Shown here in pieces: positions 6,656 through 9,058 of a DNA stretch of 10,813 bases. The position numbers and the translations under genes were made by a program. The stretch comes from Patescibacteria group bacterium (lineage in GTDB: Bacteria > Patescibacteriota > CPR2 > UBA1875), in NCBI GenBank assembly GCA_041737595.1, contig JBGSRK010000016.1:1-10813 (forward strand), given 5' to 3'. The notes beneath the pieces were generated by a model, which searched no databases, was not told the DNA's origin, and saw only the letters and a list, made by a program, of their open reading frames with translations. The first letter of the stretch is position 1. Every line of letters starts with the position of its first letter.

Positions 6656-8030
6656 TACTCTTACTAAAAAGAAGGAACTATTAAAACCAATTAAAAAAGG
6701 TGAAGTTAAGATTTATAATTGTGGGCCAACAGTATATAACGATCCAACTATTGGTAATCTTAGAACATATATTAATGTAGATATATTAAGAAGATCATTA
6801 AAATATCTAAATTTTAAGGTGATAGAAGCTATGAATATTACTGATATAGAGGATAAAATTATAAGAGATTCAATAAAACTGAAAGTTCCATATACTGAAA
6901 TTACTAAAAAATATGAAAAGTCATTTTTCGAAGCATTAACTGATTTAAACATTGAATTACCAGAATATACTCCAAGAGCAACAGAGGAAGTCCCGGGGAT
7001 GATAAAAATAATAGAAAAATTACTTAAAGATAAATACGCCTATATATCTGATGATGGTTCTGTCTATTTTTCTATTTCAAAGTTTAAAAACTATGGAAAA
7101 CTTTCTGGGTTAGATAATAGAGAAATTATAAATGGAGCTAGAGTCGCACAAGATGAATATGAAAAAGAAAACGCTCAAGATTTTGCTATATGGAAAGCTA
7201 AAAAATTAGGGGAACCATCATGGAAAGCTCCTTTTGGAGAAGGTAGGCCTGGTTGGCATATAGAATGTACAGCAATGAGTACTAAATATTTAGGTAAAAC
7301 AATTGATATCCATTCAGGAGGAGTAGATTTAATATTCCCACACCATGAAAATGAAATTGCTCAAAGCGAAGCGTACACAGGTAAAAAATTTGTTAATTTA
7401 TGGTTCCATGGAGAACATCTACTTATTAATGGCAAAAGAATGGGTAAATCGATGGGGAATGCTTATACACTGGATAATTTAAAGGATAAATATACGGTTG
7501 AACCCTTGGCTTTTAGAATGCTTTGTCTTTCGTCACATTACCGAGATAAGTTAAATTTTACTGATAAATCTATACTTGATGCACAAAATACACTACATAA
7601 TTTAAGAGAGTTTATTTTAAGAATGAATCTAGTTGAAAATGACGGAAAATTATCAGAAAAAGTTAATAAAGAAATCGAAAAAACTGAGAAGTTATTTGAA
7701 AAATATATATCAGATGATCTATCAATATCTAAAGCACTCGCAACAATATTTGGTTTAATTAAATTTACTAATAAACAAAAATTCCTTACCAAAAACGATG
7801 CCACTTCGGTACTTCACTTTATGGGAGTAGTAGATAGAGTTTTAGGTTTGCGCTTAGATGATATTAAAGTTGAGAAAATACCAGATGAAATACATAAAAT
7901 GGCCGTATCACGTGAAGATGCAAGAAAGAATAAAGATTATAAATTAGCAGATAATTTTAGATCTAAAATCGAGAAAGCTGGTTATATGGTCGAAGATACA
8001 GAAGACGGCCCGTTAATAAGAAAGATATAA
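6639..8030 (+). CDS. cysS: cysteine--tRNA ligase
   Basis: LYNTLT, YNCGPTVY, NITDIEDKII, DFAIWK, GRPGWHIEC, DIHSGGVDLIFPHHENE and C-terminal R..ARKNKDYKLADNFR. Zinc ligands are intact. Confidence 0.98.
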   Translation: MIKLYNTLTKKKELLKPIKKGEVKIYNCGPTVYNDPTIGNLRTYINVDILRRSLKYLNFKVIEAMNITDIEDKIIRDSIKLKVPYTEITKKYEKSFFEALTDLNIELPEYTPRATEEVPGMIKIIEKLLKDKYAYISDDGSVYFSISKFKNYGKLSGLDNREIINGARVAQDEYEKENAQDFAIWKAKKLGEPSWKAPFGEGRPGWHIECTAMSTKYLGKTIDIHSGGVDLIFPHHENEIAQSEAYTGKKFVNLWFHGEHLLINGKRMGKSMGNAYTLDNLKDKYTVEPLAFRMLCLSSHYRDKLNFTDKSILDAQNTLHNLREFILRMNLVENDGKLSEKVNKEIEKTEKLFEKYISDDLSISKALATIFGLIKFTNKQKFLTKNDATSVLHFMGVVDRVLGLRLDDIKVEKIPDEIHKMAVSREDARKNKDYKLADNFRSKIEKAGYMVEDTEDGPLIRKI

Positions 8031-9058
8031 TGAATTCAAATAATTATAGGATGGAAAAACCAATTTTAGTATTGGCCCCTATGGCGAATATAACAACATA
8101 CCCATTTGCTTCTCAATGTGTTAAATATGGAGCTGACTTGGTTTTTACGCCCATGGTCCATACAGACACTATTATTAATAATTGGCCAGAGGCTGAAAAA
8201 ATATTAAATTTTGAAGATCCTAATAGTCATCCTGAACACAGTGAAGCCTGCCTGCCGGCAAGGCAGGGATCTATAGATTATTCGGTTTCGCCTCAGAATG
8301 ACAAATATATAGGTATTAAAAATTACGTAGTTCAAATTATTGGTTCTGAACCGGATAAAGTATCAGAAGCCATAAAAATTATTGATAAAAAACTAAAACC
8401 AAAAGGAATTGATCTAAACTTTGCTTGTCCAGATAAAAATATTATTAAATCTGGTTGTGGTGGATATCTTATGCAATATTCTGATAAAATAGTCGAAATA
8501 TGTAAAGCTGCAAAAAGAAGTACAAAATTACCAATTTCAATAAAAACAAGAGCTGGATGGGATAACCATACAGATATTTTTAATATATTAAATTTAATAC
8601 AAAAAGAAGGTATAAATACAGTCACGATACATCCAAGAACGGTTAAAAGTGGTTTTTTGGGCGTATCTGATTGGAATATTATTAAAGAAGTTGTAAAAAT
8701 GTACCCAAAATTAAATATTATTGGGAGCGGTAATATAGAAACATGGCAAGATGCCTTAGAAAAACAACGAGTTACAAAATGTTTCGGAGTTATGATAGGC
8801 AGAGGTGCTCTTGGAAAACCCTGGTTATTTAAGGAAATCAAAGATAAAAAAGATTATATTTCTAATTTTACAGAAATTAAAAAGTTAGCTTTAGATTTAA
8901 CCCAAAAAGCTCATGATATTTGGGGTGACAAGGGGATTACAGAATCAAAAAAACATTTTGCATGGTATTTTAAAGGATTCCCAGGCGCCAGCTCTTATCG
9001 AAAAGGGTTAATGGAGACTAAAAACCTCAAAGAAGTTAAAAGTATTTTAGAAAACTAA
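8030..9058 (+). CDS. dusB: tRNA-dihydrouridine synthase (DusB-like) containing an in-frame repeat insertion
   Basis: LAPMA, VVQIIGS, DLNFACP (catalytic Cys), SIKTRAGW, TIHPRT, GVMIGRGALGKPW and KKHFAWYFKGFPGA. ATG 8030 overlaps the cysS stop (TAATG). Alternative start at ATG 8051. Subfamily assignment is less certain than family. Confidence 0.88.
   Translation: MNSNNYRMEKPILVLAPMANITTYPFASQCVKYGADLVFTPMVHTDTIINNWPEAEKILNFEDPNSHPEHSEACLPARQGSIDYSVSPQNDKYIGIKNYVVQIIGSEPDKVSEAIKIIDKKLKPKGIDLNFACPDKNIIKSGCGGYLMQYSDKIVEICKAAKRSTKLPISIKTRAGWDNHTDIFNILNLIQKEGINTVTIHPRTVKSGFLGVSDWNIIKEVVKMYPKLNIIGSGNIETWQDALEKQRVTKCFGVMIGRGALGKPWLFKEIKDKKDYISNFTEIKKLALDLTQKAHDIWGDKGITESKKHFAWYFKGFPGASSYRKGLMETKNLKEVKSILEN
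8226..8302. repeat. 77-bp palindromic REP/RPE-like miniature element inside dus
   Basis: Terminal inverted repeats GTCATCCTGA (8226-8235) and TCAGAATGAC (8293-8302) match 9/10. Internal perfect palindrome ATCTATAGAT (8269-8278). GC-richer than the host gene. Confidence 0.75.
8247..8267. repeat. 21-bp GC-rich palindrome CCTGCCTGCCGGCAAGGCAGG nested in the larger element
   Basis: One extra A relative to the perfect 20-bp palindrome CCTGCCTGCCGGCAGGCAGG. It splits the left arm (GAAG|GATCT) of the outer element's inner hairpin. Confidence 0.8.

Follow-up and report, generated by a model that had tools for sequence, protein, structure and literature searches.

The 10,813-nucleotide window analyzed here (contig JBGSRK010000016.1 of assembly GCA_041737595.1, a Patescibacteria group bacterium) harbors a 21-bp palindromic segment at 8247..8267, inside the dus gene for tRNA-dihydrouridine synthase (8030..9058, + strand). 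The segment splits one arm of a larger, two-armed hairpin repeat of the GTCAT...ATGAC family (8226..8302, + strand). It is likely that it represents the +A allele of a very widespread, sharply bounded, non-coding and GC-rich 20-bp repeat, nested in a REPIN-like hairpin repeat in dus and carried as passenger or selfish DNA. The same 20 or 21 letters were found at many unrelated loci of other genomes, cultured isolates included, and filled and empty sites were found to differ precisely by the palindrome. In the following, C, G and L numbers denote contigs, genomes and loci, respectively.

The palindrome in dus and the repeat that carries it

The window reads CCTGCCTGCCGGCAAGGCAGG at 8247..8267 (no strand assigned), between GAAG (8243-8246) on the left and GATCTATAGATTATTC (8268-8283) on the right. 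As an earlier reading made from the letters of the window (the sequence-only reading) had stated, this is the perfect 20-bp palindrome CCTGCCTGCCGGCAGGCAGG with a single A added. Within the open reading frame (ORF) 8030-9058, the 21 nt keep the frame and are translated as ACLPARQ, and inspection revealed stop codons to be absent from the palindrome in all six frames. The segment folds as a strong hairpin, with −11.8 kcal/mol for the RNA. The 20-mer at up to three mismatches gave no match in 200 shuffles of the window, a test in which the real copy likewise goes uncounted, since it differs by an insertion rather than a mismatch. Two Logan contig sets, X1 and X2, either of which may be the source sample, were both identical to the window over 8000-8600, extra A included.

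The outer repeat was recognized from its paired copies in the genome, its flanks and the arm motif of relatives, and it measures 77 nt as found in dus and 56 nt minus the inner palindrome. BLAST of 8200-8330 against the genome, together with a pattern scan, showed the family to be bounded by GTCATYSYGA...TCRSRATGAC and to comprise 18 paired copies in the source genome, usually of 52-60 bp, plus many single arms. Each element consists of two arms in inverted orientation, and each arm is itself a hairpin with a 5-bp stem ATYCT/AGRAT, tandem GA/GA, a 2-bp helix and a small loop. The C-type arm of the dus copy, GTCATCCTGAACACAGTGAAG^GATC (8226..8271, + strand), has the stem ATCCT/AGGAT, whose 3' strand the palindrome splits between AG and GAT. 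The T-type arm (8276..8302, − strand; minus-strand reading GTCATTCTGAGGCGAAACCGAATAATC) shows a 29-nt match to C67:19085-19113 and is slightly degenerate, with GAAT instead of the GAAG of the family. Among the 31 uninterrupted arms of the genome, the stem covaried perfectly (17 ATTCT/AGAAT, 14 ATCCT/AGGAT, none mixed). The inner 2-bp helix around the tandem GA/GA also covaried perfectly, for example at C54:29328, C67:40284 and C71:2903. Because both helices covary in this way, the arm hairpin, as DNA or RNA, is under selection. The arm motif was found in 28 of 61 related genomes (reversed control 0/61) and in none of the four same-family genomes.

The palindrome was found to be an addition to this repeat and not an integral part of it, in agreement with the sequence-only reading. 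It is absent from 16 of the 18 paired outer elements, so that it is far from being present in every other outer copy, and none of the 31 arms matching GTCATYCTGA..GAAGRATC in the source genome is interrupted, as against the single split arm in dus. A near-identical empty arm, GTCATCCTGAACGCAGTGAAG followed directly by GATCT..., is located at C54:29328-29379. Excision of the 21 bp had been predicted to restore the outer hairpin. This was seen in the hand pairing of the rejoined GAAGGATCT with AGATTATTC (seven Watson-Crick pairs, one G-T and one G-A mismatch), in the computed fold of the emptied element, which pairs its two arms, and in the empty copy on C54.

Nested inserts of other kinds, GC-rich hairpins for the most part, are located in the arms or loops of further outer-repeat copies (C54:106759-106857, C80:8519, C71:48802, C137:1654, C56:5845), such as CCTGCCCATCCGCAGGCGGG in the loop of GTCATTCTGAA..TTCAGAAT. 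Related GC hairpins within other arms of the genome were located at C80:8519, C71:48802, C137:1654 and C108:56286. An Rfam search of the window and 11 loci gave only tRNAs above gathering scores, and at E up to 10 over 8150-8380 it returned nothing notable and no family for arm or palindrome. Comparison of the 77-nt outer element with annotated plasmids gave no match, and with annotated phages just two weak ones (E 0.6), both to Gordonia phages.

Distribution, boundaries and host sites of the palindrome

The perfect 20-mer itself is present at one further place in the source genome, C36:40604-40623, within another element of the outer family (GTCATTGCGAG subfamily), where it directly follows GTCATTGCGAG on the opposite strand. 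In two sister copies of this element the 20-mer is missing at that place, and they bear an AT-rich hairpin a few bases off. The exact 20-mer or the identical 21-mer was found in 10 of 61 relatives (reversed control 0/61), and genome G017 holds 21 sites, six of them the identical 21-mer. At up to two mismatches, the palindrome occurs in 135 of 401 sampled genomes of the phylum (reversed control 1/401), the copy number varying from 0 to 45 sites per genome of ~1 Mb (richest in G281). These counts and the unrelated contexts described below establish that the motif is multi-copy; as paralogues and closely related genomes contribute to the numbers of sites, tests based on them overstate independence.

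The scans of collections (genomes, viral contigs and metagenomes) covered exact matches. Scanning one genome per species gave at least 120 stretches, and the record labels among the matches listed comprised Patescibacteria groups, Bacteroidota, Omnitrophota, Planctomycetota, Gamma- and Deltaproteobacteria, Chloroflexi, Thermodesulfovibrionales and others. Cultured Bacteroidota isolates among the matches listed were Winogradskyella echinorum, Flagellimonas yonaguniensis, Longitalea luteola and a Flavivirga sp. On viral contigs, 42 stretches hold the palindrome. Four copies are located at the viral locus L191, on a GC-rich contig with unreliable ORF calls. An exact-string search of the literature, which left supplements such as the REP catalogues of PMC3733652 outside its reach, returned no paper with the 20-mer, its 14-nt core or three peptide readings; 11-mers of the outer-repeat ends occurred, among the matches listed, only in unrelated papers.

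Several variants and arrangements of the palindrome were also observed. The recurrent variant CCTGCCTGCCGGTAGGCAGG has one C-to-T change giving a G-T pair (e.g., G230, G104, G080 and G148), and a further one is CCTGCCTGTCGGCAGACAGG (e.g., G272, G371 and G407). A copy in the source genome at C67:98205, CCTGCCTGTCGCAGACAGG, resembles the latter and looks, from its sequence, to be sitting in a T-box leader. On two viral contigs, a pair of adjoining 21-mers in opposite orientation makes up a perfect palindrome of 42 bp (L182:632-673, L204:2003-2044), and a 20-mer is nested within a 20-mer at L066 and L093.

The boundaries of the repeat are sharp. The palindrome does not extend into the flanks at 132 of 194 unique sites, and the composition of the 388 half-sites showed no conserved base, T being scarce at −1 (0.08). 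About 180 distinct flanking tetranucleotide pairs were counted at 198 unique sites. A 2-nt direct repeat abuts both ends at 9/194 sites and a 3-nt repeat at 2/194, repeats of 1-3 nt being at chance level. Repeats of at least 7 nt (7, 8 or 14 nt) occur at 8/194 sites, all in heptamer or octamer tandem arrays, and none of 4-6 nt was seen. The absence of a target duplication, noted earlier at dus, is hence general to the family as judged from flank composition and direct repeats. Inside tandem arrays with 7-8-nt units, the palindrome lies in phase (L081, L096, L136, L138, L158, L168, L175 and L189). No long parent element bounded by two half-sites was found in the source genome.

Comparison of filled with empty sites showed the precise difference to be the palindrome, both in murB (see below) and in an orthologous pair from congeneric genomes. 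The filled site of G017 in this pair reads ...GTCAACAC, 20-mer, TTTGAG..., and the empty site of G025 reads ...GTGACAC/TTTGG..., with 100% identity on either side beyond a ~45-nt patch. The site lies within a host repeat of ~200 nt, of which 14 copies were aligned; two (one each in G017 and G015) are filled, at an identical point, and the other 12 are empty. To the right of the patch, the filled orthologue has the host-family consensus (AATCGTTAGCC) and the empty G025 differs (AATCTTCTGCC), which hints, in this single case, that the G017 patch may have arisen by conversion from a filled paralogue.

With respect to hosts, a GTCAT-type end was present within 70 nt of 34/194 sites versus 53/1134 shifted controls (odds ratio 4.3, a figure inflated by G017 paralogues). 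The palindrome was further found within 5' tRNA-like fragments and a small number of complete tRNA genes, within other copies of itself and within short tandem arrays. In tRNA hosts it occupies the variable region or lies at a loop edge, on the 3' side in the D-loop and on the 5' side in the anticodon loop. The tRNA-associated loci are L195:2239-2330, L141, L022, L023, L063, L088, L156, L202, L163:3709 and L079:3628, the copies in L022 and L023 being at about position 1500. At L195, a tRNA-Met is still predicted by ARAGORN, its variable region containing the 20 nt. Several tRNA 5' fragments carry the palindrome at the D-loop 3' edge and one (L163) at the 5' edge in the anticodon loop. Such fragments are often followed, after 20-300 nt, by an intact tRNA gene. 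Transfer RNA genes were rejected as the main target, as in silico removal of the palindrome yielded a complete tRNA across the junction at only 2/194 sites, the remaining tRNA-like hosts being 5' fragments.

To describe the coding copies, ORFs spanning a copy were compared with the source genome by tblastn at 153 sites. Besides the one in dus, seven copies lie within conserved genes, namely murB, an rRNA-methyltransferase-like gene, ftsK, a dTDP-glucose-dehydratase-like gene, scpB, gatB and one ORF of G017, the gene names being our reading of the alignments. In murB (L070) exactly seven residues, LPAGKAG, are added without duplication, and the copy in the G017 ORF (L025) is nested in a GTCAT hairpin and is read, as in dus, as ACLPARQ. 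Coding copies confirmed by homology comprised 4/19 21-mers versus 4/134 20-mers (Fisher p 0.009), a comparison of eight sites of which one is the dus copy itself; when this copy is excluded, three of the seven coding copies are 21-mers. The inserted base is A in 24 of the 25 21-mers and G in one, the remaining 173 sites being 20-mers.

The extra A is therefore a propagated, recurrent allele rather than a local repair. The sequence-only reading had suggested that it might be a compensatory or selected change. As a compensatory change private to dus this is not supported, since the 21-mer occurs six times in G017 and all but one of the 25 21-mers have gained an A, while a weaker form, an enrichment of the frame-keeping length among coding copies, stands on the eight sites above. 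Selection for frame seems to decide which allele survives in genes. At an ORF position orthologous to that of L025 (G017:C2), the locus L208 of a congeneric genome (G015:C22, about 8019-8228) carries a different set of nested hairpin repeats, including the variant CCTGCCTGCCGGCGAGGCAGG, and this position is a hot spot of in-frame repeat turnover.

Proposed spread and rival explanations

The existence of the family, its boundaries and its nesting were observed directly, as were sites with and without the palindrome and the repeated occurrence of the +A allele; the manner of spread is inferred. The palindrome would be added precisely and without target-site duplication to repeats, tRNA genes or their fragments, its own copies, tandem arrays and occasionally ORFs. 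In genes, the frame-keeping copies would survive, favoring the 21-nt allele. Two routes are our best guess. Secondary spread would take place with or between copies of the host repeat, by co-mobilization of composites and gene conversion. Rare primary insertion might involve a single-stranded hairpin made by a trans-acting enzyme, for which an HUH/Y1 (RAYT-like) protein is a candidate, and viral contigs point to a possible vehicle between organisms. The first route is better supported than the HUH idea because composites with the junction GAAG-palindrome-GATC recur and the filled G017 flank matches the host-family consensus. The second is suggested by Y1_Tnp genes in the source genome and in many high-copy genomes.

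The source genome encodes two RAYT-like Y1_Tnp (HUH) proteins (C54:115280-115909 and C67:1-1029). A Y1_Tnp match was found in 21 of 30 genomes with at least 10 sites versus 190 of 401 overall, an association judged by eye that ignores relatedness. The sequence-only reading had raised the question of which enzyme families co-occur with the palindrome; the answer is a loose co-occurrence with Y1/RAYT-like genes, which makes an HUH/Y1 enzyme the leading candidate but a weak one, a lead rather than a finding. A third palindromic repeat of 27 bp, ATTGATGGAAGTCGGACTTCCATCAAT, has five copies in the source genome (C54:115210, 115452 and 115920; C108:68027; C120:7150; at locus L013, 1231-1258 and 1933-1965). 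The RAYT-like gene on C54 has two of these copies at its sides and a further one within it, in frame.

Several observations weigh against the reading of a mobile palindrome that spreads in this manner. The best NCBIfam match of both Y1_Tnp genes, the REP-associated tyrosine transposase (REP_Tyr_transpos), scores 55.9 and 47.3 versus a cut-off of 80. The 20-mer does not flank the RAYT-like genes of the source genome, one of which is flanked by the different palindrome just described. A Y1_Tnp match is lacking in nine of the 30 high-copy genomes, including G281 with its 45 sites and four of genus g88. Targeting of hairpin loops as a general rule was rejected, as the junction falls in a loop at 59/194 sites versus 299/942 controls, and emptied 60-nt sites have a mean fold energy of −11.9 versus −12.1 in shifted controls. 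No palindrome-free or empty dus allele of the source organism was seen in X1 and X2; the palindrome may have entered before or after the outer repeat reached dus, and the two successive insertions put forward by the sequence-only reading are one possible course of events at this locus. The coding enrichment draws on few sites, and the sites counted are not fully independent, as mentioned above. Finally, letter-perfect identity across phyla is explained neither by gene conversion within genomes nor by co-mobilization.

A one-step origin, in which the palindrome was already built into the outer repeat when this composite arrived in dus, its 21-nt length being coincidental, is possible but rather doubtful. 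The identical junction GAAG-palindrome-GATC was found in 76 metagenome stretches with 68 unique junctions, mostly in GTCATCCTGA... arms, GTCATYNNR being located within 45 nt upstream of 48 of the 68. Its mirror image occurs in G035 in a closely similar arm, GTCATCCTGAACGGAGTGAAG, 2 nt from the dus arm. In G017, seven GTCATTCTGG...CCAGAATC hairpins are filled at one identical point, the 5' edge of the loop (the empty copy reads GTCATTCTGG joined to CTTGACCAGAATC), as expected of multiplying composites. However, just two of the 68 unique composite junctions are 21-mers, yet the copies in dus, L025 and murB (L070) all are, as would be expected if a frame filter acted on nothing but the palindrome. 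Parsing was possible for 50 composite arms, which represent 43 distinct arm alleles with loops of 7-35 nt, and the closest relatives of the dus arm are empty both in the same genome (C54:29328) and in the sample (a 152-nt contig in X1).

It is unlikely that the 20-mer is a functional module, i.e., a selected operator, an RNA stabilizer or terminator, or an extension of the outer-repeat stem, instead of mobile DNA. The copies are strikingly uniform across phyla, form the strong hairpin noted above and recur at fixed points of covarying host hairpins, all of which would suit such a role. Against this, the palindrome is found in about 180 immediate contexts, including conserved ORFs (dus, murB, ftsK, gatB and scpB) and tRNA genes or fragments. 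Both orthologous and paralogous sites may have or lack it, its copy number ranges from 0 to 45 among genomes of one phylum, it matches no Rfam family, and in dus it splits the covarying stem rather than extending it. A local or de novo origin, by template switching, which hairpins are known to provoke, or by mis-assembly in a 143-contig metagenome-assembled genome with foreign GC-rich contigs, followed by addition of an A to restore the frame, is highly improbable and to our mind already refuted: the same 21 letters recur at many unrelated loci of other genomes and isolates, two contig sets agree on the site, and the flanks offer no template for the palindrome.

The dus gene and relation to known palindromic repeats

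The dus gene codes for 342 amino acids, and residues 15-339 match PF01207 (E 7.5e-59). Comparison with the Dus proteins of 11 relatives revealed about 32 extra residues (about 63-95) that are missing in all of these. The 77-nt outer element accounts for most of them. As 77 is not divisible by three, the insert would comprise the element with one flanking A (A-GTCAT...ATGAC-A) and thus measure 78 nt, the palindrome included, and 57 nt when it is left out; some five or six extra residues are not accounted for by the repeat. All 37 columns invariant among the 12 Dus sequences are retained, including residues C133, K172, H201 and R203. In the alignment to chain 1vhn_A, residues 14-59 and 97-339 correspond to 8-53 and 59-300 of the chain, which places the insert directly ahead of the conserved VQIxG strand. 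Owing to this alignment and textbook TIM-barrel topology, the insert is predicted to form a surface loop on the face away from the active site. The gene looks intact, in agreement with the proposal that it is still functional.

The window is contig C14 of an assembly of 1.09 Mb in 143 contigs. Its large contigs have 32-37% G+C versus 45-63% for many small ones (e.g., C127, C5, C93 and C34), and the bin therefore probably holds foreign DNA (reported contamination 3.5%). The neighbors of dus are ordinary: two PMT_2 glycosyltransferases, ybaB, recR, an ABC transporter, cysS, an RRM protein and tRNA-Gln.

The statement of the sequence-only reading that no mechanism can be named for a mobile unit of this size was overstated, as the REP/REPIN family and mitochondrial GC clusters are precedents for mobile palindromes of 20-40 bp. 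REPs and REPINs, which are mobilized by RAYT (Y1 HUH) transposases, are the closest bacterial kind, being GC-rich palindromes of 20-40 bp in many copies and devoid of coding capacity. A cognate RAYT gene in the genome, as a rule with its REPs on either side, is characteristic of them. The inverted doublets of REPINs, which form a larger hairpin, have the architecture of the outer GTCAT...ATGAC element. The inner palindrome resembles REPs in its length of 20-21 bp and its copy number (up to 45 sites per genome, in 135/401 genomes), and RAYT-like genes are present in the source genome. REPs inside ORFs and nested in other palindromes are also mentioned by Di Nocera et al. (PMC3733652), in whose account the REP tag is a GTAG or CGTC tetranucleotide at one end. 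In contrast, neither this tag nor a conserved flank was present in the 388 half-sites, and the inner palindrome is perfect and has no orientation. It does not flank the RAYT-like genes, and nine of the 30 high-copy genomes have no match to Y1_Tnp. REPINs are described as vertically inherited and lineage-specific, whereas the inner 20-mer is identical across many phyla and viral contigs. The palindrome thus fails the defining features of REPs, i.e., tag and lineage specificity.

Rickettsia palindromic elements (RPEs) are palindromic repeats of about 100-150 bp, not known outside Rickettsia, that occur in frame within protein-coding genes that stay functional. The palindrome is similar in its in-frame insertion into intact ORFs (dus, murB, ftsK, gatB, scpB and others), which is a shared behavior and not a membership by sequence; it differs in being 20-21 bp long, mostly non-coding and spread over many phyla. 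Such elements in functional coding genes are cited in the background of PMC3733652. Miniature inverted-repeat transposable elements (MITEs) are, like the palindrome, non-autonomous inverted-repeat DNA in many copies. They make a target duplication and have the terminal inverted repeats of a parent IS. The palindrome fits neither this nor their size, given as 70-300 bp with terminal inverted repeats (PMC3733652), and no longer element bounded by half-sites was seen in the source genome. Mitochondrial GC clusters are described as short GC-rich palindromes in AT-rich genomes that merge and shuffle by an unknown mechanism and undergo horizontal exchange, the yeast GC42 cluster being 42 nt long with an AG target duplication (PMC4478555). 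The hairpin elements of sponge mitochondria (RHE) are a further comparator (PMC2800124). The palindrome shares with GC clusters the GC hairpin in an AT-rich genome and the merging and shuffling, but it is bacterial, has no duplication and is unrelated to them in sequence.

More tentatively, and with less than even confidence, it may be suggested that the 20-bp palindrome CCTGCCTGCCGGCAGGCAGG is the smallest known self-propagating unit of bacterial DNA, a phylum-crossing "hairpin parasite", possibly traveling on phages, that relies on an undescribed trans-acting, hairpin-based mechanism distinct from REP-RAYT. If the favored reading of a widespread mobile repeat is true, a 20-bp sequence would behave, throughout a large part of the bacteria, as a genetic unit in its own right, with letter-perfect copies, nesting in repeats and in tRNA genes, and loops of seven residues in essential proteins. 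Palindromes and host repeats of this kind break assemblies, copies being found at contig ends. Being stop-free, such stretches can sit within predicted ORFs, and in-frame insertions pass silently through annotation pipelines. The enzyme or repair route by which a 20-mer of fixed sequence is introduced without target duplication would then be a matter for testing, and the presence of the palindrome in cultured Bacteroidota makes such experiments possible.

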